Shown: positions 2,221-18,342 of the stretch, in pieces
Layout: the number at the start of each line of letters is the position of its first letter
Position numbering within the stretch: position 1 is the stretch's first letter
Assembly: GCA_021776095.1 (NCBI GenBank)
Contig: JAJFGO010000118.1
Coordinates: 1,045 to 65,044 of the forward strand
DNA length: 64,000 nt
Direction of reading: 5' to 3'
Origin: Kiloniellaceae bacterium
GTDB taxonomy: Bacteria > Pseudomonadota > Alphaproteobacteria > Kiloniellales > J153
Translations under genes and position numbers: made by a program
Notes under the pieces: model-generated
Database searches by the model: none
What the model was told of the DNA's origin: nothing
Seen by the model: only the letters and a program-made list of their open reading frames with translations

Positions 2221-3153
2221 TTGCAGAAACGATTGCCCCCCCTCAATGCGCTTAAGGCCTTCGAGGCTGCGGCGCGCGGCGGCGGCTATGTCTCGGCGGC
2301 TCGCGAACTGGGGGTATCCCCGGCGGCGGTCAGCCAGCAGGTCAAGAATCTGGAGGGCTTTTTCGACAAGCAACTGTTCACACGCTTCAACAATCGCCTG
2401 GTTTTGACCGACGCGGGCCTGGCGATTTTCGTCGAAAGCTCGACCGCACTAGAAAAGCTGGCCGCGATGACCCAGCGGGTCTTCGAGGGCGAGGTCCGCT
2501 CGCGCCTGGTGGTCAGCCTGCTTCCCTCGCTGGCGAATCGCTGGTTTAACCGGTCGTTGCCGGCGTTCCTCGATCTCGAACCGGCCATGCGCGTGGAGGT
2601 CCGGGTCGAAGACGATCCGGTCGATTTCGCGCGCTACAATATCGACGTACGCATTTGCTACGGGGCTCACCTCTATCCCGAACTGGCCAATACCGTCTTG
2701 GTTCGCGACGAGGTGCTACCCCTGTGTACCCCCGCCTTTATGGAGGGGCACGGATTCGATGGGGCTGTGCCCGGGGTGCTATCCGATACGCAGCTCATCC
2801 ATACCCTTTGGGGGCCGAGCTTCGCGTCCCATCCCACTTGGACCGATTGGTTCGCGTGGGTCGGGCAGGACCGCGCACCCGATTTCGGCAAGGGGCATGG
2901 CGTGGGGCGGTCGAGCCTGGCCATCGATCTGGCCCTGGCCGGCAGCGGTATCGCGCTAGGTCAGCGCCTGCTGGCGCGCGACGAGATCGCCGAAGGCCGG
3001 CTCCTGGCGCCCTTCGAAGGGGCGATCCCGCTTGGGCATCCCTACTGCGCCGTGCACCCGCGCGCTAAGGCACGCAAACCCGGGGTGCCGTCGTTCGTTC
3101 AATGGGCAGTGTGCGATGCGATGCGGGGTGTCGCGCCGCCTTTGGCTTACTGA
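2221..3153 (+). CDS. LysR-family transcriptional regulator, GcvA-like
   Basis: RLPPLNALKAFEAAAR...SAARELGVSPAAVSQQVKNLE helix-turn-helix followed by a LysR substrate domain; TTG start. Confidence 0.9.
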   Translation: MQKRLPPLNALKAFEAAARGGGYVSAARELGVSPAAVSQQVKNLEGFFDKQLFTRFNNRLVLTDAGLAIFVESSTALEKLAAMTQRVFEGEVRSRLVVSLLPSLANRWFNRSLPAFLDLEPAMRVEVRVEDDPVDFARYNIDVRICYGAHLYPELANTVLVRDEVLPLCTPAFMEGHGFDGAVPGVLSDTQLIHTLWGPSFASHPTWTDWFAWVGQDRAPDFGKGHGVGRSSLAIDLALAGSGIALGQRLLARDEIAEGRLLAPFEGAIPLGHPYCAVHPRAKARKPGVPSFVQWAVCDAMRGVAPPLAY

Positions 3154-3641
3154 GAATCGGCCCGGTACATGAAATAGCGCCCGGGTTTGACCGCGTCGGG
3201 GAGCGCAACGGGCGTGGCCCCGGGAAACCCCAGGTCTTGGTCCGAGACGACCAGACCTCCGGGTGCCAAGAGGCCGGCCAGTTGCGTTGCCAGGAAGCCG
3301 GCCAATTCCGCGTTGAGACGTGTGTTCCCGGTGCCGATATCGCTGTGCACCAGGGGGACCTTACCGGCGAAACGCGCCGCAGCGTCGGGCAGGGTCTCGC
3401 GGATATCGCCCAGGATCAGGTGCGCCCCATCGGGCACGCATTCCGCCGAGGCCGCGACCTCGCGCTCAAAGACGAAGATGTCGCGCTCCGGGCACAGCTC
3501 GCGCAAATGATGATAGGTGCGGCCCTGGCCCAGCCCGAATTCGAGGATCGGGCCGGGCGACGCCGCGATCAGGCTGGCGGCGCGCTCGAGGCAGGCACGT
3601 TGGGCCTGTAAGCGGCGAATCACACTGTCCAGACGGCTCAT
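3147..3641 (-). CDS. Small class I SAM-dependent methyltransferase (Methyltransf_17-like), copy 2
   Basis: MSRLD...ILEFGLGQGRTYHHLRE motif I; paralog of the adjacent gene. Confidence 0.8.
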   Translation of the reverse strand: MSRLDSVIRRLQAQRACLERAASLIAASPGPILEFGLGQGRTYHHLRELCPERDIFVFEREVAASAECVPDGAHLILGDIRETLPDAAARFAGKVPLVHSDIGTGNTRLNAELAGFLATQLAGLLAPGGLVVSDQDLGFPGATPVALPDAVKPGRYFMYRADSQ

Positions 3642-3652
3642 GCCCGCAGGGC

Positions 3653-4153
3653 CTAGCGCCCGTCGTCCGCGCGACGGTACAGGAAGTACACCCCCGGCGC
3701 CACGTCTTCGGGCAGGGCGAGGGCCACGCTGGGCACGAATGCGACATCACGGTCGGCCGCGACTAGGCCGCCGGGCCGCAAAATCGTCGGTAGGTATGCG
3801 GCGATGAAGGCCGCCTTGCGCGCGTCGCGCGCCGGGTTGGCGGAGCCGAAGTCGGCATGGACTAGCGCGACCTGGCCGGCGAAACGCTCGGCTGCCGTTG
3901 GCAGCGTATCCTTGAAGTCGCCACAAAAAAGATGCGCCTGGTCCGGAATGCAATCGGGGTGCGCGGCGACCTCGCGGTCGAAAACGAAGATCTCGCGCCC
4001 CGGCAGAACCTCGCGCAGATGATCGTAGGTGCGTCCGTTCCCCAGGCCGAGTTCAAAGATCGGTCCGGGCAAATCGCGAATGGCCTCCGCAGCCTGGTTC
4101 AGGCAGGCGCGTTGGGCCTTGAGACGGCGGATGTTGATATCGAGCCGGCTCAC
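3653..4153 (-). CDS. Small class I SAM-dependent methyltransferase (Methyltransf_17-like), copy 1
   Basis: MSRLD...FELGLGNGRTYDHLRE; GTG start. Confidence 0.8.
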   Translation of the reverse strand: MSRLDINIRRLKAQRACLNQAAEAIRDLPGPIFELGLGNGRTYDHLREVLPGREIFVFDREVAAHPDCIPDQAHLFCGDFKDTLPTAAERFAGQVALVHADFGSANPARDARKAAFIAAYLPTILRPGGLVAADRDVAFVPSVALALPEDVAPGVYFLYRRADDGR

Positions 4154-4190
4154 GACACCACCGGCCTTACCTGGTGCATGGGAATGGAAA

Positions 4191-4640
4191 TCACTTAGCG
4201 CCCTCGCGTGCGGCCATCAGCAAGGCTGTTGTGTGCTCCAGGCGATGTGCCAGGACGCGCATGATCTCGACACCCATTTCCGGGAAGTCGGTGACCATGC
4301 GGAAGAACAAATCCTTGGTAATTTCCAACGCGGTCAATTCACTGGTCGCGACCACGCTGGCGGTTCGCGGCACGTCGCACAGAATCGCGATCTCGCCGAT
4401 GATATCGTTCTTGCCGACCTGCGCCACCACCAGCGGACCGTTGTTTTGGACCACAATATCGGCGTCACCTTCGATGATGATAAAGGCGGATTCGCCGGCG
4501 TCGCCCTGGTCGCAAAGAGATTGCCCCGCCGTGAAGGTCAAGCGTTGGCTGGCAAAGCACATGAGCTTCAATTTCGCCGAATCGATGTTGGCGAATAGGG
4601 GTATCTTGCGAAGGATTTCGACTTCTTGTTCAATGCTCAT
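4191..4640 (-). CDS. Stand-alone cyclic nucleotide-binding domain protein
   Basis: LRKIPLF, QGDAGESAFIIIEG and phosphate-binding cassette GEIAILCDVPRTASV; no HTH. Confidence 0.9.
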   Translation of the reverse strand: MSIEQEVEILRKIPLFANIDSAKLKLMCFASQRLTFTAGQSLCDQGDAGESAFIIIEGDADIVVQNNGPLVVAQVGKNDIIGEIAILCDVPRTASVVATSELTALEITKDLFFRMVTDFPEMGVEIMRVLAHRLEHTTALLMAAREGAK

Positions 4641-4661
4641 ACTTCAACTCCGATCTAGCCG

Positions 4662-7379
4662 CTATTCTGCGGCCAAGATTTGGTTCAAGGCCGATCCCGG
4701 TTTGTTCAGATCGGCGAAGCTGCCCTGTTCGACGATCCGCCCATCTTGCATGATAAGAACGCGCGCGAAGTGCTCGCAGCTTTGCGGCCGCTGCAGAACC
4801 CAAATCACGCCGCGCCCCTTACGCCGCTCCAGAACATTGCGTTGCAGCCGGTCTTGGGTCGCTAGGTCCATGACCGCGAGACCGTCGTTGACGATCAGAA
4901 CATCCGGCCGTTTCAACAACACGCGCGCCAGGCCGAGTTTCTGACGCTGCGCCGCGCTCAAGCGCTTGCCGCCGACGCTGACTTGAAAATCCAAACCCGC
5001 CTCGACGACGGCCGCGCGCAGGCCCAACGCACTTAAAAGATCTGTCATGATCAGTCGGACGGTCTCTTCCGCCTTGGCCTGGCCATGGGCGACACGGCCG
5101 AAGAGGATATTGTCCTGCAAGGAGGCCGCCCCATTGTAGGCGTCGGGGTCGTAGATCGCGACCGCATGGGGATCTTCGCGTTTCAGACGTTCGGCAAAGA
5201 GCTTGCGCGCCGCCACGGCGCGCGCCTCGATGGAGTCGTTGATCAGGCCGAGACGATGACGGGCCTCGCTATAATTCAAGGGCAGACCGCGCAACGCCAG
5301 GCGATCCGGCGGGCCCAGTGCGTCCTTGCCCTGTTTTTCGACCTTGGCGATATAACTGCCGAAATCCGCCAGATCGTCGGCGTCGATGAAGCTGAACTGT
5401 TCGAAGAACGGATGGCCGGGCGGTAGGTCTGCGAAAATTTCCAGCATGGTGCGGGCGATGGAGATCCCCATGTCGAGCATGGATTCGTCCAGCCCCGCGT
5501 CCTTCAGGACCGCGCCCATCAACTCGTTCTTGGCCAAGGCGCCGAGCATGTATTCCGGCTTGCGCGGGGTGCCGAACAAAAGGTTTTCAGCCAAAGTTGC
5601 GTTCTGGTTGTAGGAATCCGGATCGAAACGGATGACCAGATTCTCGGCCTTTTCCTCGATCAGGCGCTTGGGTAAGGCCGCGCGCGCCTGCAGGATAGCC
5701 TCGGCGATCTCGGGCCGGGCCTCGGCGTCGATCGTGCCGCTGAGGCCGAAGCGATAGACGTCGTCTGCCATATCGACCAGCTTGAGCACCTCGACGATCT
5801 GTTCGTCGATATCCTCAGGCCCCGTGGCGCCGGCCGCCGCGTAATCGGTCCAGTCCGCTTCGAAATCCAAAGTCGTGTTGCCGGCGCGCAGGCTTTCCGC
5901 GACCCAGGCCTTGCGGCGCACGCGCCGTGCCGGAGTGTCCTCGGGCTCCCGCAGCGGCCGGTGGCGTAGGCCGTACAACAGGTTTTCGCGCACCGACTGC
6001 GGGAAGAAAAAAGTGTCCTGCCCCAGGTAACCGATCCGCTGGCCGGTGATCGATTGCGGCATCTTGGTCAAATCGCGCGTGCCGATCCGTATGCTGCCTG
6101 AGGATGGCATGGCCAAACGGGCCAGGATCATCGCCAAGTGATCCTTGCCCGATCCGGCGGGGCCGAGGATCGCGATATGATCGCTCGAATCGACGGTGAA
6201 GCTAGCCGACCGAACCAGCCGGTTGCCGGATTCATCGGTCAGGGAAACCGCCGAAAGGCTAAGCGGCCCCGCCAGGGGCTCGCTGGCGTCCTGCTCCGGG
6301 TCTTGGACCTCCGGCTCGAGGATTTCCGGCGGCTGAAACTGCTCGATCACCTGGTCGTATTTGATCTGCACGTCGGCGCGCTGCTGTTCCCAGTCGATCA
6401 ACTCCTTAATCGGCCCCGGCAGGTCCTTGTAGGCGAAAATGACCGCGACCAAGGCGCCGACGTCTAGATAGCCGCGGATCGCCAAGACTCCCCCGCCGCC
6501 GTAAAAAATGAAAGGCGTGAGCTGGGCCAGGAAATTGTTGACGAACTTGACCATGAACTTGCGCTGGAAAATCTCGTAGCGGATCTCGAAGATCCGCCCC
6601 AGACGGCTGGCCAGGTCGCTGCGCTCCAGGTTCGAGGTGTCGTGGGAATGGATTTCGACCGCGCCGTCAACCACTTCCGCGATGCGCCCGGCCAGTTGGC
6701 GCGCGGTCAACTGCCGTTGCCGGCCCAGGCGCAGAATGGGCAACCGCATCCTGGGCACCAGGTAGGTTTGGAAGGCCACGATGACGGCGGCGACCAAACC
6801 AAGCCAGACGTTTTGGGTCAGGATAAAGATCATGGCCGTGATTGCCTGGCCGCCCAGAAAGGCGGGGGTGACGAAGGCGTCGCCAATGAAGCCGCCCAGG
6901 GGCTCGACCTCGTCCTTAATCATGGTTGCCGCTTCGGCCTGCTTGACCTTGCGGATATAGGGAATCGGAAATCGCAGAATGCGGTCGCTCAGCTCATAGC
7001 GCAGCCGGCGCAGCATGCGCTCGCCCATGCGACCCTTGCCGGTGTTGATCGAATACTTGAAGCCGCTGTTAATGAGATAGAGGATCACGTAGGTGAAGGT
7101 CAGGGACAGCAACAGGCCCTGTTGCTCCAACGAAAATCCATCGAACAGCTCGACTGGAGCGCCGGTCAGAGCTTCGCCAAAGGGCAGGTCGAAAGCCAGG
7201 AAGGATTGGCTATCCGCCGCCGACTCGAAACCCTCGCCCAAAATCCCCCGATTTACGATTTGCTTGGGCAGATCGAGCGACAAGAAATAAAAGGGCATGG
7301 ATAACAACACGAGCAGAAGGATCGCAATCTGCTCGCGTTTTGAGTGCCGCCAGATGTATTTGAAAAGGTTCGGTTCCAT
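4662..7379 (-). CDS. Exporter-type ABC transporter (TMD-NBD fusion) with a large NBD insertion and degenerate catalytic motifs
   Basis: N-terminal ABC membrane domain; Walker A GPAGSGKD; signature LSAAQRQ; Walker B VLIVND; switch region IWVLQR. Confidence 0.85.
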   Translation of the reverse strand: MEPNLFKYIWRHSKREQIAILLLVLLSMPFYFLSLDLPKQIVNRGILGEGFESAADSQSFLAFDLPFGEALTGAPVELFDGFSLEQQGLLLSLTFTYVILYLINSGFKYSINTGKGRMGERMLRRLRYELSDRILRFPIPYIRKVKQAEAATMIKDEVEPLGGFIGDAFVTPAFLGGQAITAMIFILTQNVWLGLVAAVIVAFQTYLVPRMRLPILRLGRQRQLTARQLAGRIAEVVDGAVEIHSHDTSNLERSDLASRLGRIFEIRYEIFQRKFMVKFVNNFLAQLTPFIFYGGGGVLAIRGYLDVGALVAVIFAYKDLPGPIKELIDWEQQRADVQIKYDQVIEQFQPPEILEPEVQDPEQDASEPLAGPLSLSAVSLTDESGNRLVRSASFTVDSSDHIAILGPAGSGKDHLAMILARLAMPSSGSIRIGTRDLTKMPQSITGQRIGYLGQDTFFFPQSVRENLLYGLRHRPLREPEDTPARRVRRKAWVAESLRAGNTTLDFEADWTDYAAAGATGPEDIDEQIVEVLKLVDMADDVYRFGLSGTIDAEARPEIAEAILQARAALPKRLIEEKAENLVIRFDPDSYNQNATLAENLLFGTPRKPEYMLGALAKNELMGAVLKDAGLDESMLDMGISIARTMLEIFADLPPGHPFFEQFSFIDADDLADFGSYIAKVEKQGKDALGPPDRLALRGLPLNYSEARHRLGLINDSIEARAVAARKLFAERLKREDPHAVAIYDPDAYNGAASLQDNILFGRVAHGQAKAEETVRLIMTDLLSALGLRAAVVEAGLDFQVSVGGKRLSAAQRQKLGLARVLLKRPDVLIVNDGLAVMDLATQDRLQRNVLERRKGRGVIWVLQRPQSCEHFARVLIMQDGRIVEQGSFADLNKPGSALNQILAAE

Positions 7380-7609
7380 CGGGTCCGAGGGTTTGCGGCG
7401 GGAAAAAGCGGGCCGCTGCCTCGCCTATCCCAAGAATCTGGCGCGACATTATCTCAATGCCCAGGTGTGGTAAACTGGCCGCCGTGGTCCCGCCCGGCCG
7501 CGCGCCGGGCCTGAACCGGGCTCCGGCGGGGCAGGGCTTGCGCTCTTAGGTCCGGGTGCCCTAGTCTTGCCAAGAAACGGGGCTGCGGCCCAATGGGGGG
7601 GGAAGAGTC

Positions 7610-8854
7610 ATGGGCCCGGGCCGCAAGAACAAGCGCGTCCTTATCTACAGTCACGATAGTTTCGGCCTCGGCCATTTGCGCCGATGCCGAGAAATCGCGC
7701 ACAGCCTGGTCGGCGCCATGAACAACCTGACCGTGCTGATACTATCGGGGTCGCCGATCATCGGCAGTTTCGATTTCCGCTCGCGCGTGGATTTCGTGCG
7801 GATTCCCGGGGTCATCAAGTTGCGCAACGGCGAATATACGCCGCTCAATTTGCACATCGACATCGAAGATACCCTGGCAATCCGCGCTTCGATCGTCGAG
7901 CACACGGCGAAGATCTTCGATCCCGATCTCTTCTTAGTGGACAAAGAGCCGCTCGGCTTGCGCGGCGAGGTCAAGAGCACCTTGGCCATGCTGAAGGCGC
8001 GCGGCACGCCCTGCATCTTGGGCCTGCGCGACGTCATGGACGATCCGGCGGTGCTGGCGACCGAATGGCAGCGCAAGAAGGCCCTGCCGGCGCTGACCGA
8101 ATACTACGATTCCATTTGGGTCTACGGCTTGCCGCAAATCTGCGATCCGCTGGACGGCATGGACGTGCCGGATTCCTTGCGCCGCAAGACCACCTTCAGC
8201 GGCTATTTGAACCGGCATGTGCCCGAGACCGCGCCCTTGTTCGTGCCGGAGAAGATCGCCGATCCCTTCATTCTGGTCACGGTCGGCGGCGGCGGCGACG
8301 GCGAGGAGATCATCGACTGGGTGCTGTCGGCCTACGAAGCCGACCCGGACCTGCCGTATCCGGCCCTGGTCGTTCTCGGCCCCTTCATGGGCGCCCAGCA
8401 TCAGGCGGATTTCCTGCAGCGGGCCAGCCGCCTGCCCAATGTGGAGGCGATCACCTTCGACGCCCACATCGAGAGCCTGATGGCGCGGGCTATCGGCGTG
8501 GTCTGCATGGGCGGCTACAACACGTTCTGCGAGGTGCTGTCCTTCGACAAACGAGCCTTGGTGGTGCCGCGCACGACGCCGCGCCTGGAACAATTCATCC
8601 GCGCTTCTCGCGCCCAGGACTTGGGCTTGGTCAAGATGCTCGAAGACGATGGCGTGCGCGACCCGCGCGTCATGGCGACCGCCTTACGCAATTTGCCGCA
8701 GCAGGCCGCACCGTCGAGTGTGGTTGTGCCGGGATTGCTCGACGGCCGGGCCAATGTGATCAAGTTGACACAGCAGTGGCTCGCCCGCGGCGATACCCGG
8801 TTTTCAGTCGCGCCGGAGATTCAACCCCAGGCGGCGTTGCAAGGCGGCGACTGA
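7610..8854 (+). CDS. GT-B glycosyltransferase (COG4671-like, GT28 C-terminal-like)
   Basis: VLIYSHDSFGLGHLRR, LRDVMD, VTVGGGGDG, MGGYNTFCE, EQFIRA. Confidence 0.85.
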   Translation: MGPGRKNKRVLIYSHDSFGLGHLRRCREIAHSLVGAMNNLTVLILSGSPIIGSFDFRSRVDFVRIPGVIKLRNGEYTPLNLHIDIEDTLAIRASIVEHTAKIFDPDLFLVDKEPLGLRGEVKSTLAMLKARGTPCILGLRDVMDDPAVLATEWQRKKALPALTEYYDSIWVYGLPQICDPLDGMDVPDSLRRKTTFSGYLNRHVPETAPLFVPEKIADPFILVTVGGGGDGEEIIDWVLSAYEADPDLPYPALVVLGPFMGAQHQADFLQRASRLPNVEAITFDAHIESLMARAIGVVCMGGYNTFCEVLSFDKRALVVPRTTPRLEQFIRASRAQDLGLVKMLEDDGVRDPRVMATALRNLPQQAAPSSVVVPGLLDGRANVIKLTQQWLARGDTRFSVAPEIQPQAALQGGD

Positions 8855-8914: not shown

Positions 8915-10195
8915 ATGACCCCGCTCCGCCAAGACACCGCCGCCGGCGGCGAGCTCGCCGTGGTTTTGAAAGGCTATCCGCGCCTTTCGGAAACCTTCAT
9001 CGCGCAGGAAATCCATGCCCTGGAGCGGCGTGGCCTGCGTTTGCGGCTCTATTCCCTGCGCCACCCCAGCGACCCGGCGATCCATCCGGTACACCGCGAG
9101 ATCGCCGCGCCGGTGGTCTACCTGCCGGAGTACCTGAAGGACGATCCGGGCCGGGTCTGGCGTGCCTGGCGCCGGGTCCGGTACATGCCCGGCTATCCGG
9201 CCGCCCGGCGCGCTTTCCTGCGCGATGTGGCGCGCGATCGTAGCGCCAACCGGCTGCGCCGTTTCGGCCAGGCCTGCGTGCTGGCGGCGGAGCTGCCGGC
9301 CACGGTCGGGCGGATCTATGCCCACTTCCTACACACTCCGGCCTCGGTCGCCCGCTATGCCGCCGCGATCGCCGGTCTGCCCTGGTGCGTTTCCGCCCAC
9401 GCCAAGGACATCTGGACCTCGCCGGTCTGGGAGAAGCGCGAGAAATTGGCGGACGCCGACTGGGCAGTGACCTGCACCGCCGTTGGCCGCGACCACCTAG
9501 CCGGGCTGGCGCCGAACCCGGAGAAGGTCGGGCTGGTCTATCACGGCCTGGATTTCAGCCGTTTCACCGCCCCCGAAACCGAACGCCTGGCCGGCGATGG
9601 CGACGGCGGCGCTGCGGACGGTGCGGTGCGTCTGTTGTCGGTCGGGCGTTTGGTCGAAAAGAAGGGCACCGACGATCTGCTCGCCGCCTTGGGGCACCTG
9701 CCGGTGGATCTGAACTGGCATTTGACCCACGTCGGTGGTGGTGAGTTGAAGGCGGTTTTGGAGGCACGGGCCGAGCAGTTGGGCCTGAACGGGCGGATAG
9801 CCTGGCTCGGGCCGCAGCCGCAGGAGCGCTTGCTGCGCGAATACCGCGCGGCAGAACTTTTCGTTCTGGCCAGCCGGATCGCCGCGGACGGCGACCGCGA
9901 CGGCCTGCCCAACGTTCTCATGGAGGCGCAAAGCCAGGGTCTGGCCTGCGTGTCCACGCGGGTCGCCGCAATTCCCGAGTTGATCGAGGACGGCACGACC
10001 GGTTGCCTGGTCCCGCCCGGCGATCCGGCGGCGCTGGCCGGTGCGCTCGAACGCTTGATCCGCGATCCGGGGGCGCGCGCGGACCTGGGCGCGGCGGGCG
10101 CACGCCGGGTGCGCGAAGGCTTCGCCATGGAACAGGGTATCGAGGCCTTGCTGGCCCGTTTTGGCACGCCCTCGGCCCTGGCGGCGGTCCAGTGA
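8915..10195 (+). CDS. Glycosyltransferase family 4
   Basis: YPRLSETFIAQEI, VGRLVEKKG, DRDGLPNVLMEA. Confidence 0.9.
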   Translation: MTPLRQDTAAGGELAVVLKGYPRLSETFIAQEIHALERRGLRLRLYSLRHPSDPAIHPVHREIAAPVVYLPEYLKDDPGRVWRAWRRVRYMPGYPAARRAFLRDVARDRSANRLRRFGQACVLAAELPATVGRIYAHFLHTPASVARYAAAIAGLPWCVSAHAKDIWTSPVWEKREKLADADWAVTCTAVGRDHLAGLAPNPEKVGLVYHGLDFSRFTAPETERLAGDGDGGAADGAVRLLSVGRLVEKKGTDDLLAALGHLPVDLNWHLTHVGGGELKAVLEARAEQLGLNGRIAWLGPQPQERLLREYRAAELFVLASRIAADGDRDGLPNVLMEAQSQGLACVSTRVAAIPELIEDGTTGCLVPPGDPAALAGALERLIRDPGARADLGAAGARRVREGFAMEQGIEALLARFGTPSALAAVQ

Positions 10196-10223
10196 GTCCC
10201 TGTATCGAACGCGGCCGGCCCAG

Positions 10224-11354: not shown

Positions 11355-11947
11355 TCCCGCTGGTTGTAATCCGCCATGGGCCGACCGCATGGAACGCCGA
11401 GGGGCGAATTCAGGGGCGCAGCGACGTGCCACTTTCCCCGAATGGGCGGGCGGCGGTGCGGTCGTGGCGCTTGCCGCCGGGGGTTGGCGGCCCGGGTTGG
11501 ACTTGGCTGTGCAGCTCCTTGTCGCGCGCGCGCGAGACCGCGCACCTGCTCGACCCGGCGGCAGACCCGCGCGAGCATCCGGCGCTGATCGAAATGAACT
11601 GGGGCGCTTGGGAGGGCCGCGTGCTGGCTGAGCTGCGCCTCGCCGGCGGGTCGGAAATGATCGAGGCCGAGGCGCGCGGGCTCGACTTCCGGCCGCCGGA
11701 CGGGGAATCGCCGCGCGATGTCCAGGCTCGCCTGGTTCCGTTTCTGGAGTCCTTGGCGCGGGTGGCGGTGCCGTGCTTCGCGGTTACCCACAAGGGCGTG
11801 ATCCGGGCCCTGTACGCGCTGGCCAGCGGCTGGGACATGACCGGCCGGCCGCCGGAAAAACTGCGCGATGCCTGCGCCCATGGCTTTGCGCTCGATGATC
11901 AGGGACGGCCCCAAGTGAAGCGCCTCAACCTGGACTTGGTCCCGTGA
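11351..11947 (+). CDS. Histidine phosphatase family protein
   Basis: IRHGPTAWN (RHG), SSLSRARET, EMNWGAWEG, VTHKG; 4-bp overlaps on both sides. Confidence 0.9.
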   Translation: MIPLVVIRHGPTAWNAEGRIQGRSDVPLSPNGRAAVRSWRLPPGVGGPGWTWLCSSLSRARETAHLLDPAADPREHPALIEMNWGAWEGRVLAELRLAGGSEMIEAEARGLDFRPPDGESPRDVQARLVPFLESLARVAVPCFAVTHKGVIRALYALASGWDMTGRPPEKLRDACAHGFALDDQGRPQVKRLNLDLVP

Positions 11948-13113
11948 GCGCTCCAAGCGCGCCCGCCGAGGTCATGATCTACGTTCAGCACCTGCTCGGC
12001 ATTGGGCATTTGCGCCGCGCCGCGGTGATCGCGCGGGCCGCCGCCGAGGCCGGCCTATCGACCGTCCTGGTCAGCGGCGGCCCACCTGTGCCGGGGCTGG
12101 ATAGCGGAGAGGCCCGCCTGATCCAGTTGCCGCCCTTGAGCGCCCAGGACGAAAGCTTCGCGGTGTTGGTCGACCGGAACGGCCGGCCGGCCGACGAGGC
12201 TTATAAGGCGGCACGGCGTGCCACCCTGTTGGACCTCTTCGGCACGCTGCGCCCGCGCATCCTCATGACCGAGATGTTTCCCTTCGGCCGGCGCCAGATG
12301 CGCTTTGAACTCTTGCCTCTGATTGAGCGCGCCCGGGCGGCGCGCCCGCGCCCCAGCATTCTGTGCTCCCTGCGCGATGTGCTGACCACTCACAAGAAAC
12401 CCGGTAAGACCGAATGGATGTTGGAGACCTTCGCCCAGCTCTACGATCTCGCATTAGTGCACGGCGATCCCGATATCCTGCCGCTCGAACGCAGCCTGCC
12501 GCGCGCCACCGAAGTTGCCGAGCGCCTGCGCTACACCGGCTATGTCCTGGAACCGCCACCGCCAAGCCCGACGAGCGATCCCAGCGGCGAGGTCATCGTC
12601 TCAACCGGCGGCGGCGCCGTGGCCGGGCCTTTGATCGAGGCCGCCATGGCGGCCCGCGCGCTCGGAACCTTGGCGGATGTGCCTTGGCGGGTCTTGGTTG
12701 GTCCGGCCTTGCCCGAGGCGGACTTCCGCGATTTCGTGGCGCGCGCGCCGCACGGCGTCACGGTGGAGCGGGCCCGGCCGGATTTCCGGGCACTGCTGGC
12801 GCACGCACGGCTTTCGATCAGCCAGGGCGGTTACAATACCGTGATGGATGTCCTGGCCGCCGAGGTACCCGCCGTGGTGGTTCCGTTCAGCACCTTGGGC
12901 GAGACCGAGCAGGCCTTGCGCGCCCGGGTCTTCGCGGCGCGCGGTTTATTGTCCGTCGTGATCGAGGACCCGCCGAGCGCCGAGGCCGTGGCGCGCGGCG
13001 TGCAAGAGGCACTGAACGCGCCGCCGCGCGGCTTGGCGGGGGTTCGCGTTGACGGCGCCGCTGAAACCGCCCGCATCCTGGCGGCCATGGCTGGTGACCG
13101 CGCGATATGCTGA
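11944..13113 (+). CDS. GT-B glycosyltransferase (COG4671-like), distant paralog of 7610..8854
   Basis: IYVQHLLGIGHLRR, EMFPFGRR, SLRDVL, VSTGGG, QGGYNTVMD, ETEQALRA. Confidence 0.85.
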   Translation: MSAPSAPAEVMIYVQHLLGIGHLRRAAVIARAAAEAGLSTVLVSGGPPVPGLDSGEARLIQLPPLSAQDESFAVLVDRNGRPADEAYKAARRATLLDLFGTLRPRILMTEMFPFGRRQMRFELLPLIERARAARPRPSILCSLRDVLTTHKKPGKTEWMLETFAQLYDLALVHGDPDILPLERSLPRATEVAERLRYTGYVLEPPPPSPTSDPSGEVIVSTGGGAVAGPLIEAAMAARALGTLADVPWRVLVGPALPEADFRDFVARAPHGVTVERARPDFRALLAHARLSISQGGYNTVMDVLAAEVPAVVVPFSTLGETEQALRARVFAARGLLSVVIEDPPSAEAVARGVQEALNAPPRGLAGVRVDGAAETARILAAMAGDRAIC

Positions 13114-13125
13114 TATAACGTGGCC

Positions 13126-13941
13126 ATGAACGATTGGTCCGATCTGACCCTAGAACTGGATGCTTGGCGCGATGCCGGGCGCGGGGCCAGCTTTTGGTGG
13201 CGCGACGACGACGCCGTGGAGCCCACGCCGGCGCTCGAGCGTCTGCTTGCTCTGGCCGAGCGGCACGCCGTGCCCTTGATGCTGGCGGTCGTTCCGGCCA
13301 AGGCGAACGAGGCGCTGGCCATCAGGCTGGCGCGGGCCGGGCCCGGTGTGGTGCCGGTTCAGCACGGTTTCGCGCACCTCAGCTACGCGCCGCCCGGCGA
13401 ACGGAGTTGGGAATTGGGCGGCCATCGCCCCCTGGCCGAGGTCTTGGCCGACTTGAGGCGCGGATGGGCGCGCATGGACGTGCTGTTCGGCGAGGACTGG
13501 CTGCCGGTCATGGTGCCGCCGTGGAACCGGATCGATGCCCAGGTGGTCGCGGCCTTGGGCACGCTCGGCTACTGCGGTCTGTCCGCCGCCGGTCCGCGCA
13601 AGGGCCTCTATGCCGCCCCCGGCGTAATCCAGGTCAACGCGCACGCCGATATCATGCGCTGGACCCCGCCGCGCGGTTTCTTGGGCGCCGAAGGCGCGCT
13701 CAAGCGCTTGCTGGCTCATCTTCGCGATCGCCGGCTCGGCCGCGCAGATCCTGAGGAGCCGAGCGGCCTTTTGACCCACCACTTGGCCCACGACGCGGGC
13801 TGCTGGGGTTTCCTCGAACGCCTAATGACCACCCTTGGCACCCATCCAGCGGCCGAATTCGTCGCCCCGCGGGCCGTCTTCGCGGTCCAAAAAGAGGTTG
13901 GCGGCCAGGCGGCGGCAGACGACAGGCGCGGCGCGGCATGA
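13126..13941 (+). CDS. Polysaccharide deacetylase-like (CE4/NodB fold) protein
   Basis: WWRDDDA, QHGFAH, VPPWN and LLTHH motifs. Confidence 0.75.
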   Translation: MNDWSDLTLELDAWRDAGRGASFWWRDDDAVEPTPALERLLALAERHAVPLMLAVVPAKANEALAIRLARAGPGVVPVQHGFAHLSYAPPGERSWELGGHRPLAEVLADLRRGWARMDVLFGEDWLPVMVPPWNRIDAQVVAALGTLGYCGLSAAGPRKGLYAAPGVIQVNAHADIMRWTPPRGFLGAEGALKRLLAHLRDRRLGRADPEEPSGLLTHHLAHDAGCWGFLERLMTTLGTHPAAEFVAPRAVFAVQKEVGGQAAADDRRGAA

Positions 13942-14477
13942 ACGAATTTCGCTATCCAGTCAACGCTTTGCTGGGCGACTACGTGCGTGCCGGTGTCGGC
14001 TTGGCCGTTGGTCTTGGGGTTCTGGCCACGGTCCCGGCCACGCCGGTCATTTTGGTCGTGTTCGGTGGCTTGACCGGGTTGTTTGGCGTGTTCGGCGCGC
14101 GCACGATGCACCGGCACGTCATCAGGATCGAGATCGGCGAGGCCGGTATCCGAAGCGCGGGACTCACCACCCGTGCCCTGGCTTGGAACGATTTGGAGAC
14201 GATGAGGCTCAGGTATTACGGCACCCGGCGGCAACGCGCGCGCAATGACGGCGGCGGCTTCATGCAGCTGGCCCTGCGCGGCGCTGGTGCCGCCTTGACT
14301 CTCGAATCCAGCGTTGAGGGCTTTGAGTACATTGCCTGGCGCGCGGCAAAGGCGGCGCGCGACAATGGCGTGTCCTTGGACCCGACTTCGGCCGGCAACT
14401 TGCTGGATATCGGCATCGATGCGGATGTCGAGCAGCCGCCGCCCAACTGGAACAAAGCCGACACCCATCAGCGCTGA
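13938..14477 (+). CDS. Hypothetical membrane protein (2 TM helices plus possible PH-like domain)
   Basis: Two hydrophobic helices followed by a soluble region; ATGA overlap with the deacetylase gene. Confidence 0.7.
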   Translation: MNEFRYPVNALLGDYVRAGVGLAVGLGVLATVPATPVILVVFGGLTGLFGVFGARTMHRHVIRIEIGEAGIRSAGLTTRALAWNDLETMRLRYYGTRRQRARNDGGGFMQLALRGAGAALTLESSVEGFEYIAWRAAKAARDNGVSLDPTSAGNLLDIGIDADVEQPPPNWNKADTHQR

Positions 14478-14621: not shown

Positions 14622-14825
14622 ATGATAGACGACCAACTTTGGACCCCACCGCAGGTGGCCGAACGCCTGCAGGTCAACGAGCGCACAGTCACCCAGTGGC
14701 TTCGCAAGGGGCACTTGCGCGGTTTCAAGATCGGCAAGGAATGGCGTGTGGCCCAGCGCGATCTCCAGGCTTTCCTGGAGGACAGCGCCAATATTCCCTC
14801 GTCCGCGACGAATCGGACTAAATAG
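14622..14825 (+). CDS. Small excisionase-family (HTH_17) DNA-binding protein
   Basis: WTPPQVAERLQVNERTVTQWLRKGHLRGFKIGKEWRV pattern. Confidence 0.85.
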   Translation: MIDDQLWTPPQVAERLQVNERTVTQWLRKGHLRGFKIGKEWRVAQRDLQAFLEDSANIPSSATNRTK

Positions 14826-14876
14826 GCCCTTCCGAGGCGTCCACAGTCATCAACAGCCTGTTGATAACGTCATCGG

Positions 14877-14905: not shown

Positions 14906-14911
14906 GGCGCC

Positions 14912-14986
14912 AAGTGGGCAATCCATTCGCGATCTCCCCGATTTGACCACCCGGGCTCCGCGCAAATTTGCGGGGCTCTTTTTTTT
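14912..14986 (+). ncRNA. Candidate ~75-nt sRNA with a CU-rich anti-Shine-Dalgarno motif
   Basis: Promoter-like element upstream, small 5' hairpin GTGGG-CAA-TCCAT, TCTCCCC motif, then a terminator hairpin and T8. Confidence 0.35.
14953..14986 (+). terminator. Rho-independent terminator
   Basis: GGGCTCCGC...GCGGGGCTC stem (G-U pairs) followed by TTTTTTTT. Confidence 0.75.
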
Positions 14987-15050
14987 GGCGCGTGCCAAGG
15001 CGCGTGCTCGACCACTGAGGCTCGGATGGGATTCAGGCGGCTGGGGCGTA

Positions 15051-16502
15051 TTAGGCCGCCAAGACCACCACGTCGACCGGATGGCCCACGCCCGCGACCT
15101 GGGCTTGCTCCGCGCGGCGGCGGCCACCGGCCGGGGCCACGCCGGTGACATAGCCCTGGGCCTCGGCCAGCGCGAAGGTTTCCGCGTCGCACACCGCCAG
15201 GGCGCCGATCTTCTTATTGAACTGTTCCAGTTTGGCGGAGAGGTTCACCGCGTCGCCGATCACGGTGTATTCCAGGCGGGTATCGTCGCCGACCGCACCG
15301 AACACAATGCGCCCGGTCGCGACCGCCGCATTCACATGGGGCGCGGGCTTGCCCTGCATCTCGTTGCGGGCCTGCCAGGTCCGGGCCACTTCGATCGCTT
15401 CCTCGACCGCGCGCACCGCGTCCGCGGCATAGGTTTGCGATGGCCTGGAGGCGCCGAATGTCGCCATGATGCCGTCGCCCAGGAACTTGTCGATGCTGCC
15501 GTCATGCTTCTGGATAATCGGCACGATCAGCTTCTGATACTCGCCGAGCAGGCCCATGACCTGATCCGGTGAATGGCTCTCGGCATAGCGGGTGAAGCCG
15601 CGCATGTCGAAATTGACGATCGCGGCGTCGCGCGCCTCGCCGCTGCCGGCGGCGATCTCGCGGTCGGAGCCGCGAATTTTCTGGGCGATCTCCGGCGCGA
15701 AGAAACGTGAAAGCTCCTGCGCCGCGGCACCTTCCGTGACCGCGCGCACAAGCAGGCGTCGGCCCCGAATCAGCGCCGCGCCCAAAATCAGGGCGACCAC
15801 CAGAATCGACACCATCTTGTCGAATTCCGCACCCAACAGGACGCTGTTAGAGGTCATGTAGGCGATATAGTCGCGGGTGATCATGTTGTCGGACGGATCG
15901 ATCGAAATCACGTAGAAGACTAAGACCGACCAGCCCAATGCCGCCACCACGCCGGCCGCGATGACGAAACGCGCCTCGAAGCGCAGGGCGCGCAACGCGA
16001 TGAAGATGAAGACGTACAGCAGAGTCGGCGCCTTCAGATAGAACGAGGCCGGCTGCATGTACTGGATGTGGAAGCTCCAGATGAGGCCGAATAAGAGCCC
16101 CATATCGATCACGATCGAAATCAGCAGGAACCAGCCCGGCAGGCTGATCCTGTAGGCCAACAACAGGCGCAACAGGGTGAACAGGAGATACGCCCCGATG
16201 ACCCAGGGGACCGGCTGAAATTCGACGTTGATCGGCGTGGTTTTGGGCGAAAGGATATAGAGCGTGGCAAAGATTGTGACCACGGCGAGTTGGACCCAAC
16301 CGATCAGGCGCTCGGTCGCATCGCCCTGCTGTTGAATCGCCTCGCGAACCCGCACCGGCAATAGGCCTTCGCCGTCGATACCGCGCAGCCGGCGCCAGAG
16401 CGAAGGTGGCGTTTCGGTAACGGCTTGCGCTTCCGCGCGCGCGATTCCACTGCCGTGAGCTTCGGCCGGTATGGGGGCAGCGTGTTCGCTCGAACTGGTC
16501 AT
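15051..16502 (-). CDS. Membrane-bound class III adenylate/guanylate cyclase
   Basis: About 6 TM helices, then FDMRGFT, DKFLGDG and EYTVIGDAVNLSAKLE. Confidence 0.9.
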   Translation of the reverse strand: MTSSSEHAAPIPAEAHGSGIARAEAQAVTETPPSLWRRLRGIDGEGLLPVRVREAIQQQGDATERLIGWVQLAVVTIFATLYILSPKTTPINVEFQPVPWVIGAYLLFTLLRLLLAYRISLPGWFLLISIVIDMGLLFGLIWSFHIQYMQPASFYLKAPTLLYVFIFIALRALRFEARFVIAAGVVAALGWSVLVFYVISIDPSDNMITRDYIAYMTSNSVLLGAEFDKMVSILVVALILGAALIRGRRLLVRAVTEGAAAQELSRFFAPEIAQKIRGSDREIAAGSGEARDAAIVNFDMRGFTRYAESHSPDQVMGLLGEYQKLIVPIIQKHDGSIDKFLGDGIMATFGASRPSQTYAADAVRAVEEAIEVARTWQARNEMQGKPAPHVNAAVATGRIVFGAVGDDTRLEYTVIGDAVNLSAKLEQFNKKIGALAVCDAETFALAEAQGYVTGVAPAGGRRRAEQAQVAGVGHPVDVVVLAA

Positions 16503-16567
16503 GGTCCCGCGATAATAGCGCCTAGGGGCGTGACACCCTCGTCAGAATGCCGTGATACCGCCGTGAG

Positions 16568-17512
16568 TCACCCGGCGGCCGGAAGCGATCGTAGCCAAAG
16601 GCTGGAATCGGGCGCTTCTGGCCCGGTGGGCAGGCCTGCCGCGACGCTGGCCTCAAAGGCGGCAACCATACGGGTCGCGACATAACGGCTGGCGAACAAG
16701 ACCTCGAAGCGGCCGCCCAGCAGCAGCGGCAGGATGCCCAGTTGCTCGTTGTAGCCGCGCCAGTCCCACTCGGCCGGGTAATCGTCGGGCAAGAAGACAT
16801 CGTGGATCTGCACCAGAACCCCGGGCGGCAAGGCCGGCAAAAGCCGGCCGAACAAGATATCCACATCGCTGCCCGGCATGAGTATGTGGCTGGAATCGAT
16901 CGACAGGACATCGCCCGCGCGCAGGGCGTCGAACGATGCGGTGTCGCCCGCCGACAGCAGGTCCTGCAAGGTCGCGCGGTGCAGCGCCACCGGCAAGCCC
17001 ATGAGCGCGGCGCGCGGTGCGGGATCGATCGCGCGGATCTGGGTTTCCAGGGCGCCGTCAGCCACGGCCCGGGCGAAAAAGCGCGTCGAATGCCCAGAGC
17101 CGACTTCGACGATTCGGCCGGGCTTATGCTCGCGCACCAAAGCATAGGCGACCGCCGCGTCCAGGCGCGGGAACCAACCTTGGTCCCAGCGCGGTTGCGG
17201 CTCTGGGTGCGGCGGGCGCCCGGGTGGCGCGGCGGTGCCGATGCCCGATACAGCCGCCGCGTAGGTCTCCAGAAGGTCGAGGACCGCTTGGAATTCGGCG
17301 CGCTTGGCCGCGAACAGGGCCTCAATGGCAGGGTAAGCCGTCCGCTCGGCTGCACCGCCGCGTGTTCTGGCATAGCGGTGCGGTATGAAATAGCCGCGTT
17401 TCGCCAGGCCCAGCACCGTAAGAAGGCCGAACCACAGGCGGCGCCATCGCGCCCGCGGGGCCGGGTGTCTCGGTGCCGCGCGCCTGGCGGGCGCGGCCAG
17501 GGATATGGTCAT
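16568..17512 (-). CDS. Class I SAM-dependent methyltransferase (Methyltransf_24-like)
   Basis: IVEVGSGHST, AIDPAP, IDSSH, IHDVFLP; ATG at 17512 overlaps the upstream stop (ATGA). Confidence 0.8.
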   Translation of the reverse strand: MTISLAAPARRAAPRHPAPRARWRRLWFGLLTVLGLAKRGYFIPHRYARTRGGAAERTAYPAIEALFAAKRAEFQAVLDLLETYAAAVSGIGTAAPPGRPPHPEPQPRWDQGWFPRLDAAVAYALVREHKPGRIVEVGSGHSTRFFARAVADGALETQIRAIDPAPRAALMGLPVALHRATLQDLLSAGDTASFDALRAGDVLSIDSSHILMPGSDVDILFGRLLPALPPGVLVQIHDVFLPDDYPAEWDWRGYNEQLGILPLLLGGRFEVLFASRYVATRMVAAFEASVAAGLPTGPEAPDSSLWLRSLPAAG

Positions 17513-18342
17513 GGCGTCAGCACCATACCTTCGCGCGCGACCACGGTGCCCGGGCGTCTGGCTTCCGCCTCCGCCGCGACCCGGTCCATGAATTCGTCGT
17601 CGTGTCCGGGATCGTGATGGAAGATGACTAGCCGCCGCGCGCCGGCTTGCTCGCACAGGCGCACGCCTTCCTGCCAGGTCGAATGGCCCCAAGTGCGGTA
17701 TCTTGGGAATTCTTCGTCGGTGTAGGTCGAATCGTAGATCACCAGATCGGCGTTCTCGATCAGCGCCAGAATATTTTCGTCCGGCGTTCCCTCGACATGC
17801 TCCGTGTCGGTTACATAGCAGATCGCCTGGCCGGCGTATTCGATCCGGTATCCAGTTGCGCCATTGGGATGATTGAGTGCCGTGGTCCGCAGACGCACGT
17901 CGGGCCGGGGCGCCAAAATCTCCCCGGCATTGAAATCGTGATAGCTGATGTTACAGGAGAACACCCCGGGCGGCACCGGGAAGAGCGGTGGCAGCATGAA
18001 CTTCGACAGGGCCTCGTGCAGCGTCAGCTGCGGTTGCAGATTTCCGGCCCAGAGCCGGATTCGGTTCTTAGGGTCATACAATGGCGCGAAGAACGGCAGG
18101 CCGAAAATATGATCGAGGTGGGTGTGGGTCAGGAACAGATCGCCGGCCATGCCCGGTTCGCTGGCCAGGGCCTCGCCCAAGGCGCGTAAACCGGTGCCCG
18201 CGTCGAAAATCAAGAGATGTGGGCCGCAGCGCACCTCAAGGCACGATGTATTGCCCCCATAGCGCCGATGAGAATCGCCGGCGCAAGCTATCGATCCGCG
18301 CACGCCCCAGAATTTCACCGAAAAGGCCAACTGGTCGTTCAC
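17509..18342 (-). CDS. MBL-fold metallohydrolase (RNase Z-like, putative cyclic-nucleotide phosphodiesterase)
   Basis: FWGVRGS, YGGNTSC, DAGTG, THTHLDH, DTEH, WGHST, FHHDP; GTG at 18342. Confidence 0.85.
   Translation of the reverse strand: MNDQLAFSVKFWGVRGSIACAGDSHRRYGGNTSCLEVRCGPHLLIFDAGTGLRALGEALASEPGMAGDLFLTHTHLDHIFGLPFFAPLYDPKNRIRLWAGNLQPQLTLHEALSKFMLPPLFPVPPGVFSCNISYHDFNAGEILAPRPDVRLRTTALNHPNGATGYRIEYAGQAICYVTDTEHVEGTPDENILALIENADLVIYDSTYTDEEFPRYRTWGHSTWQEGVRLCEQAGARRLVIFHHDPGHDDEFMDRVAAEAEARRPGTVVAREGMVLTP

Follow-up and report, generated by a model that had tools for sequence, protein, structure and literature searches.

The 64,000-nt stretch of Kiloniellaceae DNA analysed here (contig JAJFGO010000118.1, positions 1,045 to 65,044; hereafter the window) harbours a cluster of genes encoding an ATP-binding cassette (ABC) half-transporter, a cyclic nucleoside monophosphate (cNMP)-binding protein, four glycosyltransferases (GTs) with accompanying enzymes, and a class III nucleotidyl cyclase. 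Open reading frame (ORF) listing combined with Pfam and NCBIfam scans of the window placed these genes in three adjacent transcription units, each of which was found where a preliminary description of the same DNA had located it (Table 1). In the first unit, the ABC gene, the cNMP gene and two genes for S-adenosylmethionine (SAM) methyltransferases of the Methyltransf_17 family (MT17) are separated by gaps of 21, 37 and 11 nt. The second unit, in which several gene junctions consist of 4-nt overlaps, is transcribed divergently from the first, and the third comprises the cyclase gene together with genes for a second type of methyltransferase (MT24) and a metallo-β-lactamase (MBL)-fold hydrolase. 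The core order is accordingly MT17-cNMP-ABC, divergent from GT28a-GT4a-GT4b-HisP-GT28b-CE4-membrane protein, where HisP denotes a histidine phosphatase and CE4 a protein with the predicted fold of carbohydrate esterase family 4. In annotated records every gene of the cluster bears a generic name only, and no paper describing the cluster was found in the full-text literature, in a search that did not cover subscription journals. The block represents a real, widespread and uncharacterised system.

Conservation and layout of the gene block

The gene block is more than a set of chance neighbours, because the same arrangement is encountered in tens of genomes belonging to many families. Among 41 genomes sampled around the order to which the window belongs (including the present genome, G000, and G022), Methyltransf_17 was identified in 28, and 20 stretches of up to 20 kb each were retrieved from 18 genomes. 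The ABC gene was present in 17 of these 20 stretches, always with the cNMP gene next to it, and the 17 ABC-bearing stretches carry the full GT operon in the gene order of the window where the contig permits. The other three stretches (L020, L023 and L033) contain lone MT17 paralogs of 43–53% identity, with no ABC or GT gene nearby; G014 and G016 each possess one such lone copy in addition to the cluster copy. These lone paralogs indicate that the family also has a cluster-independent role.

A profile scan of named genomes with GT28a returned at least 589 relatives, the best 80 of which were used for locus counts, each feature being scored over those loci with enough flanking sequence. These best 80 loci derive from Kiloniellales, Pelagibius, Algihabitans, Kiloniella, Tistlia, Inquilinus, Dongiaceae, Azospirillaceae and Sneathiella, as well as from many metagenome-assembled genomes. 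The ABC gene is divergent from GT28a in 48 of 65 loci, with another five having it elsewhere within the locus, and MT17 occupies its operon position in 43 of 63. Within the GT operon, conservation was observed for GT4a (66/70), GT4b (57/64), the phosphatase (53/61) and GT28b (52/56), for the 273-aa CE4-like protein (35/55), and for the 179-aa membrane protein at the end of the operon (34/55). In a class-level sample of 300 Alphaproteobacteria genomes spread over families, 96 possessed a GT28a ortholog (E≤1e-60, 40–72% identity), present as a single copy. The preliminary description had proposed that the GTs, Methyltransf_17, the ABC protein of ~900 aa and the cNMP protein belong together, and their synteny proved to be deeply conserved across the order- and class-level loci; indeed, each of the genomic comparisons that it had suggested, including those of fusions and cyclase linkage discussed below, came out in its favour.

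The intergenic region between the ABC gene and GT28a also contains conserved motifs. An extended –10-like element, TGCCCTAGT, lies at 7557–7565 (+), ahead of the GT operon; of 80 orthologous intergenic regions, 43 contain TGCCATAGT with at most one mismatch and 24 the exact 9-mer of the –10-like motif, compared with a maximum of 6 in shuffled sequences. On the ABC side, GGTAAAC at 7469–7475 recurs exactly in 17 of the 80 regions. The segment with these motifs would represent a divergent promoter region. No Crp-like palindrome stood out among the over-represented 7–10-mers of the 80 regions, as assessed by a k-mer count and not by a dedicated search, which fits protein-level control. A generic sigma-70 scan yielded one site against 2.6 expected, and no Rfam family reached its gathering score between positions 2500 and 21000.

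With respect to the third unit, the preliminary description had assigned the methyltransferase to positions 16522–17373. The gene exists, yet those coordinates are incorrect, as they correspond to a spurious frame of junk-like composition and without a Pfam match. The Pfam match sits in the frame 16568–17692, orthologs align only from about residue 53–86 of that frame, and an ATG at 17512 overlaps the MBL stop codon (ATGA), so that the correct gene is the one given in Table 1. Similarly, orthologs of GT4b align from residue ~20–22, and its true start is probably near 10224.

Table 1. Genes and other features of the cluster, with window coordinates
Feature	Position	Strand	Remarks
Methyltransf_17 SAM methyltransferase, copy a	3147..3641	-	164 aa; PF12692 E 7.8e-54; last gene of the ABC operon
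Methyltransf_17 SAM methyltransferase, copy b	3653..4153	-	166 aa; PF12692 E 1.5e-52
cNMP-binding protein, single-domain	4191..4640	-	149 aa; PF00027 E 2.6e-17; no helix-turn-helix (HTH)
Type IV ABC half-transporter	4662..7379	-	905 aa; ABC_membrane and an ABC_tran match split in two
Putative divergent promoter region	7380..7609	.	between ABC and GT28a
GT28a, GT28-like GT-B glycosyltransferase	7610..8854	+	PF04101 E 1.8e-7
GT4a glycosyltransferase	8915..10195	+	PF00534 E 1.1e-31
GT4b glycosyltransferase	10161..11354	+	PF00534 E 1.5e-26
Histidine phosphatase, His_Phos_1	11351..11947	+	198 aa; PF00300 E 1.9e-36
GT28b, second GT28-like GT-B glycosyltransferase	11944..13113	+	PF04101 E 5.3e-8
CE4 (NodB-fold) deacetylase-like protein	13120..13941	+	273 aa; predicted fold
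Small membrane protein	13938..14477	+	179 aa; hydrophobic N-terminal hairpin and soluble domain
HTH_17 (excisionase-type) ORF	14622..14825	+	67 aa; PF12728 E 3.5e-13
Strong terminator-like hairpin	14953..14978	+	10-bp stem, T8; between convergent units
Membrane class III nucleotidyl cyclase, Lys/Thr type	15051..16502	-	483 aa; PF00211
Methyltransf_24-type SAM methyltransferase (MT24)	16568..17512	-	~314 aa; PF13578 E 1.1e-7; N-terminal hydrophobic segment
MBL-fold hydrolase, RNase Z/ElaC-like branch	17509..18369	-	286 aa; PF12706 E 9.5e-24

The ABC protein and its candidate receptor

Pfam and Foldseek comparisons assign the ABC protein to the type IV exporter fold, with a six-helix transmembrane domain (TMD) followed by a nucleotide-binding domain (NBD). 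The AlphaFold2 (AF2) model showed a mean predicted local distance difference test (pLDDT) score of 81, reaching about 90 for the NBD and its insert, and the best Foldseek matches, TmrAB, PCAT1, MsbA and P-gp, were retrieved with a probability of 1.00. At 570–577 aa, compared with 905 aa for the window protein, these best matches are too short to contain the ~275-aa insert that is located in the NBD at residues ~475–750, between the two halves of the ABC_tran match. The insert includes an internal repeat of the segment that follows the Q-loop (residues 585–650 versus 745–800, z 9.5). Insert-bearing ABC proteins were identified in 32 of 401 genomes sampled at the level of the phylum, G000 included, all matches listed being from Alphaproteobacteria.

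The 149-aa cNMP-binding protein, referred to here as the receptor, matches PF00027 with 63 bits (cut-off 27.5). Among 31 orthologs, G82, R92, T93 and A94 of its phosphate-binding cassette are invariant and E83 is nearly so. In the Pfam scan PF00027 was its sole match, no DNA-binding domain being detected, and the CRP model covers only residues 23–139 with 39 bits against a cut-off of 266. A function as CRP-type regulator was ruled out, since the protein is without a helix-turn-helix DNA-binding domain. A weak match to TIGR03896 (E=3.4e-8) remained under the cut-off of that model.

The receptor is attributed to the ABC protein because the two genes are always adjacent, because they are fused in some lineages and because the receptor is predicted to dock onto the NBD insert. 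In all 53 testable loci the ABC gene is immediately followed by the cNMP gene, and this also applies to the three loci (L063, L068 and L089) where both have been relocated together downstream of the GT operon. To identify fusions, which the preliminary description had proposed to look for, the insert sequence was used in a phmmer search against 1.84 billion representative proteins, yielding 855 matches with E≤1e-3, of which 579 had E≤1e-10. Of the 150 top-ranking matches, 17 have a length of 1026 aa or more and all 17 carry a C-terminal PF00027 domain, one of them with an additional GGDEF domain; a single 952-aa relative included as a control carries no PF00027. The fused domain of one such protein (P0022) is 39% identical to the window receptor over 144 residues (E=5e-34).

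Structure prediction of ABC residues 340–905 together with the receptor gave ipSAE values of 0.68, 0.69 and 0.68, the best of three controls scoring 0.00; in calibration, 58 of 80 solved complexes and 2 of 110 mismatched pairs attained the applied mark. The partners showed pLDDT values of at least 84, and at least 88% of contacts were common to the runs. The predicted interface involves ABC residues 644–662, 708–711 and 765–768, most of them within the insert, and receptor residues 1–6, 22–36, 40, 42, 114 and 118–119, and it coincides with family-specific invariant residues. On the ABC side, the mean frequency of the top residue is 0.89 at the interface compared with 0.60 for the rest, a value that none of 10,000 random residue sets reached, and on the receptor side 0.81 compared with 0.70, which 212 of 10,000 random sets reached. 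The predicted complex supports, rather than demonstrates, binding of the receptor to the ABC insert. Taken with adjacency and fusion, it makes an action of the receptor on the ABC protein probable, and that the GT operon, the ABC protein and the receptor constitute one unit appears highly probable.

Biosynthetic enzymes, cyclase operon and importer

Among the enzymes of the GT operon, GT4a matches the NCBIfam EpsE model over its full length (E=7e-42, under the cut-off), and the GT28a profile retrieved no meaningful solved relative from the PDB, the one match being at chance level (E=0.029). The closest solved chains of GT4b were 6kih (entry name Tll1590), which we take to be a sucrose-phosphate synthase, PimB', 3c48, presumably MshA, and BshA, so that by sequence comparison GT4b would fall within a group of sucrose-phosphate synthase-, MshA- and BshA-like enzymes; its score against the MshA model is 74 bits (cut-off 462). 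The adjoining histidine phosphatase, the gene of which overlaps that of GT4b by 4 nt, displays the RHG motif, and the two may represent a synthase/phosphatase pair with a small phosphorylated molecule as acceptor.

The 273-aa protein had been termed a deacetylase in the preliminary description, a designation that Pfam does not support, as no family (PF01522 included) matched at E≤5; in addition, a profile of its orthologs matched no PDB entry. The predicted fold does support it: the AF2 model (pLDDT 93) retrieved CE4 deacetylases as almost all of its top ~50 Foldseek matches (E=2e-8, TM-scores of 0.5–0.65), which act on peptidoglycan, chitooligosaccharide or acetylxylan. Invariant residues are D29, D30, D31, H82, H86, H175, D177, H220 and H221 (DDD...HxxxH), and the spacing of these motifs points to the metal site and the catalytic Asp and His of the NodB fold. 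No signal peptide was apparent when the N-terminus was inspected by eye; deacetylation is therefore probably cytoplasmic. A separate PF01522 polysaccharide deacetylase gene is located at 23392–24495 (-), 5 kb past the cluster, and its product is PgaB/IcaB-like by NCBIfam, below the cut-offs.

The 179-aa membrane protein had no Pfam match at E≤5, and in a protein atlas it fell among clusters of hypothetical proteins only, with a weak bPH_6 lead at 0.93. Both MT17 copies score far above the family cut-off (182 and 178 bits against 27) and cover family positions 1–160 of 160. Their closest solved chain, 3iht (E=1.3e-40), is named only 'SAM methyl transferase', and comparison with the sugar O-methyltransferases NovP and MycF gave no significant match (E=0.4–0.9). 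No conserved polyprenyl-phosphate transferase, Wzx/Wzy, Wza/Wzc or acyltransferase was found in the block, which renders a classical polysaccharide or lipopolysaccharide route unlikely.

The cyclase of the third unit consists of a hydrophobic N-terminal half and a PF00211 catalytic domain (39.4 bits, cut-off 21.9), for which 2w01 is the closest solved chain (E=1.7e-21). D299, D343, T413 and N420 show no variation among 28 orthologs, in at least 90% of which K339 and K424 are conserved. K339 and T413 form the substrate-specifying pair, presumably that of a cAMP-forming class IIIb enzyme, and K424 replaces the usual Arg; Cya2, the closest solved chain, has Glu where the window cyclase has Lys. 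Orthologs and paralogs were cleanly separated (E≤1e-84 at a minimum identity of 40% versus E≥1e-43) in 80 of the 96 GT28a-positive genomes, after omission of the ten most divergent (G250, G068, G132, G197, G271, G101, G052, G323, G171 and G285) and the six least complete (G191, G298, G300, G261, G205 and G288). Applying a threshold of E≤1e-80, a cyclase ortholog was detected in 50 of the 300 class-level genomes, corresponding to 44 of the 96 GT28a-positive and 6 of the 204 GT28a-negative genomes (G056, G098, G107, G202, G217 and G222), a comparison that is descriptive, as related genomes are not independent. Where cyclase and GT28a reside on the same contig, they are at most 25 kb apart in 16 of 22 genomes. 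The linkage that the preliminary description had assumed was thereby borne out, and the cyclase is a facultative yet genuinely linked member of the cluster.

Twenty cyclase-GT28a stretches were retrieved at class level. In the common layout, MT17-cNMP-ABC is divergent from GT28a-GT4a-GT4b-HisP-GT28b-CE4-membrane protein-importer ATPase-substrate-binding protein-permease-permease, which in turn converges on cyclase-(MT24)-MBL-response regulator. A four-gene importer of the Opp/Dpp type is present with the cyclase in 17 of the 20 stretches, MBL adjoins the cyclase in 15 and MT24 in 14. In the genus and family of the window (L015, L016 and L018) the importer has disappeared from this site while the cyclase operon is still adjacent, and in G029 (L028) the cyclase has been relocated to the MT17 flank. 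A 63%-identical ortholog of the fused importer ATPase is encoded elsewhere in the present genome (G000, contig C36:103075-104952). In the window, the HTH_17 ORF and the T8 hairpin occupy the 570-nt gap where other lineages hold the importer; they may be the scar of a rearrangement that removed it, or a small regulator, and membership of the HTH_17 ORF in the system is doubtful.

The HxHxDH motif of the MBL protein (H82, H84, D86 and H87) is invariant in 20 orthologs, and the protein matches PF12706 with 84.5 bits. Its best solved relatives are ElaC1 and RNase Z, and the ortholog profile retrieved ElaC1 (1.7e-12), PhnP (0.0037) and yeast PDE1 (0.088), so that MBL has the appearance of a phosphodiesterase-type enzyme that travels with the cyclase. 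In one distant lineage (L147, G558:C34), an insert-bearing ABC gene is followed 1.8 kb downstream by an MBL ortholog (43% identity), in a stretch without a cyclase match, which hints that it may be the ABC module, and not the cyclase, to which MBL relates. Beyond MBL, an orphan response regulator of the OmpR family is encoded at 19732–20427 (-), with no kinase gene seen beside it in the window; identification of this regulator as CtrA was rejected (111 bits against an NCBIfam cut-off of 350). At the opposite end of the cluster, a gene for a LysR-family regulator (2221–3153, +) converges on MT17 copy a, with a 7-nt overlap at the end of the latter. A search of the other loci did not find this regulator gene next to the cluster, and it is probably unrelated.

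The cluster is also encoded by large plasmids of Rhizobium, Sinorhizobium and Ensifer (262 PLSDB records), and the similar gene sets that the preliminary description had mentioned for rhizobia were verified on plasmids of R. etli, R. leguminosarum and S. meliloti. On pR132502 of R. leguminosarum WSM1325 (L149), a cyclase gene, the four importer genes, three GT genes, a gene for a 905-aa ABC protein and the cNMP gene are arranged tightly head to tail on one strand. Plasmid pA of R. etli CIAT 652 (L115) displays a comparable arrangement, in which the first two GT genes, GT28a and GT4a, are annotated redA and redB, names the origin of which was not traced in the full-text literature. The arrangement on pSymB of S. 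meliloti 2011 (L116) is similar, and homologs of MBL and CE4 are encoded about 12 kb upstream. All three plasmids hold a reduced version with three GTs, and no match to GT4b or the phosphatase was found in L115 and L116. The cyclases of R. etli and S. meliloti are ~30% identical to that of the window, and over the catalytic domain only, indicating that non-orthologous cyclases have been kept at the same cluster. Upstream of the cluster, R. etli and R. leguminosarum carry a gene for a nucleotide-sugar dehydrogenase, and in R. etli two further cyclase genes and an MT17 gene are located within 12 kb. A match on an Azospirillum plasmid was of no use as a model, as it consists of a lone GT28a gene beside a transposase gene.

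Proposed function and alternatives

By gene order and content, the cluster appears to be one conserved alphaproteobacterial system and not three chance neighbours. The favoured reading, to which a probability of roughly 0.5 is assigned, is that it mediates the release, gated by cAMP, of a glycoside that is assembled in the cytoplasm, deacetylated and methylated. In the cytoplasm, GT4b and the phosphatase would convert a small phosphorylated acceptor into the glycoside, the remaining GTs would lengthen it, the CE4 enzyme would strip an N-acetyl group, and the methyltransferases would methylate the product. The ABC protein would carry this product over the inner membrane only once its receptor senses a cyclic nucleotide, most likely cAMP formed by the neighbouring Lys/Thr class III cyclase, with its six predicted transmembrane helices, upon a membrane or envelope cue. 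The Opp/Dpp-type importer, found next to the operon in most lineages and elsewhere in this genome, may recapture the product or supply the acceptor. As the weakest step, MBL may break down the nucleotide. The neighbouring cyclase is a reasonably good candidate for the source of the signal, and the class of product is proposed more tentatively, at somewhat less than even odds.

A number of observations weigh against this reading. Distant insert-bearing ABC genes are without GT genes within ~8 kb at seven of nine places, indicating that the ABC-receptor pair is the older module; these distant members are often fused, and in G132 the GT operon and importer are kept 16 kb from a distant insert-bearing ABC gene. 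Association with GT genes marks one large subfamily of the pair. At two loci (L065 and L076), GT28a and the cNMP gene are neighbours without an intervening ABC gene. The predicted complex was generated with our own alignments, and the conservation of its interface is not independent of this alignment-driven model. The receptor need not bind cAMP, given that the corresponding domain of HetC binds ppGpp in vitro (PMC10986499). Lastly, the preliminary description had cast MBL as the enzyme that erases the cyclic nucleotide, a role that the comparisons do not support: its score against PDEase_II (PF02112), the family of class II phosphodiesterases, is 10.5 bits (cut-off 23.7), that against NCBIfam cyc_nuc_deg_phdiest is 35.8 bits (cut-off 400), and among the 20 orthologs 13 match the class II phosphodiesterase family at a best E of 0.021 and two match Apyc1 (PF23023) at a best E of 0.025, below the cut-off. 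In the protein atlas, 13–17% of the members of its nearest clusters, one of which is perhaps its own, carry the Apyc1 family. An eraser role of MBL is plausible, though less likely than not, and a role in the glycan pathway is equally possible.

Further points concern the cyclase, and they feed the likeliest of the alternatives, which is nonetheless improbable: the GT operon and the ABC-receptor pair would form the system, the cyclase-MT24-MBL unit would be only an inherited neighbour, and the receptor would hear the cell-wide cNMP pool or another ligand. No cyclase ortholog was detected at E≤1e-80 in 52 of the 96 GT28a-positive genomes, and the genomes in question hold many cyclase paralogs. 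Among the 22 same-contig genomes, the cyclase is more than 50 kb away in six, namely G017, G137, G159, G282, G319 and G255, in the last of which the 'distant' cyclase adjoins a second partial cluster (L135); in another 22 genomes the cyclase and GT28a are on different contigs, including the near-complete G020, G082 and G118 (another contig or replicon). The response regulator (53–77% identity) lies next to MBL in 12 of the 20 class-level stretches, suggesting a slowly rearranging region, and the block as a whole could partly reflect inherited gene order. Mere inheritance sits poorly, however, with the strong enrichment of the cyclase ortholog in GT28a-positive genomes, with an adjacency that outlasts both the loss of the importer and the switch of flank in G029, and with the situation in Rhizobium, where a cyclase that is not an ortholog stands in the head-to-tail array of these genes.

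The ATP site raises a different objection, in that the ABC protein may not pump at all. Across 31 orthologs, with the C-terminal motifs checked against ABCB19 and the Walker A and Q-loop positions mapped by alignment, the canonical catalytic motifs of a type IV ABC exporter were not found; five motifs are off consensus, and the departures are themselves conserved. In Walker A, GxxxxGK is followed by Asp or Glu in 27 orthologs and by Ser or Thr in two. The Q-loop Gln is present in only 10 and the H-loop His in only six, the signature reads LSxxQ instead of LSGGQ, and the Walker B Asp is replaced by Asn in 27, the next residue being Glu in 18, Gln in seven and Asp in six. As the protein presumably acts as a homodimer, both sites would be affected. 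It might accordingly be a nucleotide-gated channel, a flippase-like gate or a membrane sensor that controls the pathway, in the manner of the eukaryotic ABC proteins CFTR and SUR. We consider this quite unlikely, as the Walker A Lys (28/31) and the D-loop Asp (31/31) are retained, Walker B is still followed by an acidic or amide residue, the full type IV exporter fold is predicted and the cluster encodes no other exporter. Moreover, an acid is gained in Walker A and lost in Walker B (residues 406–413 and 827–832) as a paired change in 27 of the 31 orthologs, which looks like a relocated Mg-binding acid and may preserve Mg-ATP binding.

A similarly poor prospect is that the product is a membrane glycolipid or lipid-linked glycan flipped by an MsbA-like ABC protein and not a soluble oligosaccharide: MsbA is the best NCBIfam match of the ABC protein (E=3.9e-42, far under the cut-off), PimB' is among the nearest solved relatives of GT4b, and GT28-type and some GT4 enzymes make glycolipids elsewhere, but genes for acyltransferases, polyprenyl-phosphate transferases or lipid synthesis are not conserved in the block, the translational coupling of synthase and phosphatase and the CE4 protein without an apparent signal peptide fit small soluble acceptors, and the usual neighbour is an importer for soluble ligands. 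With regard to the preferred reading of cAMP-gated release, the preliminary description was incomplete, having missed the ancestral importer, the non-canonical ABC motifs and the approximately half of cluster-bearing genomes in which no cyclase ortholog was detected.

Among known systems, a close functional parallel is offered by c-di-GMP-gated polysaccharide secretion, exemplified by the PilZ domain of BcsA, by Alg44 and by PgaCD, in which a messenger receptor is attached to a glycan-releasing membrane machine and messenger-making enzymes are often encoded nearby. The present cluster differs in having a cNMP domain of the CRP/protein kinase A type instead of PilZ, a class III cyclase as candidate writer, a type IV ABC half-transporter instead of a synthase, and an apparent cytoplasmic assembly of a small glycoside instead of a processive polymer synthase. 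By analogy, it would work like second-messenger-gated glycan secretion and like the few ABC exporters equipped with a cNMP-family domain, while standing outside the membership of those families. The combination of an ABC exporter with a cNMP_binding-family domain required for function is shared with HetC of Nostoc PCC 7120 and with NHLP bacteriocin exporters that have a TIGR03896 partner. In HetC, the cNMP-family domain is N-terminal, is accompanied by a C39 peptidase and has been reported to bind ppGpp in vitro, the presumed cargo of the exporter being a signalling peptide (PMC10986499); by comparison, the present receptor is separate or C-terminal and predicted to dock on an NBD insert, the context is one of GTs and the ATP site is non-canonical.

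NdvA and ChvA of rhizobia and Agrobacterium are likewise alphaproteobacterial TMD-NBD half-transporters, which export a cytoplasmically made glucan. The C-terminal NBD part of the window protein matches their NCBIfam models (E=3.7e-35 and 1.5e-25), yet far below the cut-offs (121 versus 733 bits and 90 versus 585 bits), and the cluster encodes no cyclic glucan synthase; we know of no insert or cNMP partner for NdvA or ChvA. The proposed pathway logic, in turn, resembles that of Nod factor (NodB, NodS and NodIJ), mycothiol (MshA, a phosphatase and MshB) and bacillithiol (BshA and BshB) synthesis, with a GT4 enzyme whose acceptor is small and in some cases phosphorylated, a phosphatase, de-N-acetylation, SAM-dependent methylation and ABC export. 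In contrast to those pathways, no equivalents of NodC, NodA, MshC or BshC were seen in the cluster, the enzymes are only distant relatives, and the CE4 protein matches NodB-type deacetylases by fold only.

About a third of the family-level sample of Alphaproteobacteria (96/300) carries the block, as do rhizobial plasmids. The cluster is a candidate case of post-translational action of cAMP on a bacterial transporter, not exerted via a CRP-type regulator, and the altered ABC motifs, together with an insert on which a receptor is predicted to dock, raise the question of how such a machine uses ATP. For most of the adenylate cyclases of S. meliloti we know of no output, and the cluster may give one of them a role. 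Twenty-six adenylate cyclases are attributed to this species in a study of the Clr regulon, the consulted passages of which contain nothing mappable to the present locus (PMC5498481). As genetically tractable rhizobia carry the cluster, its function is directly testable.

A bolder and distinctly less probable version of the preferred reading is a secretion cycle widespread in Alphaproteobacteria, in which a methylated amino-oligosaccharide made in the cytoplasm would be released through an ABC protein with a re-engineered, possibly non-hydrolytic ATP site, gated by the cAMP receptor docked on a duplicated NBD insert, and then recaptured by a dedicated Opp-type importer. If this is true, a local membrane cyclase would govern a glycan signal that serves in an autocrine manner or as a public good, and the presence of the cycle on symbiosis-era rhizobial plasmids means that it may bear on plant association.

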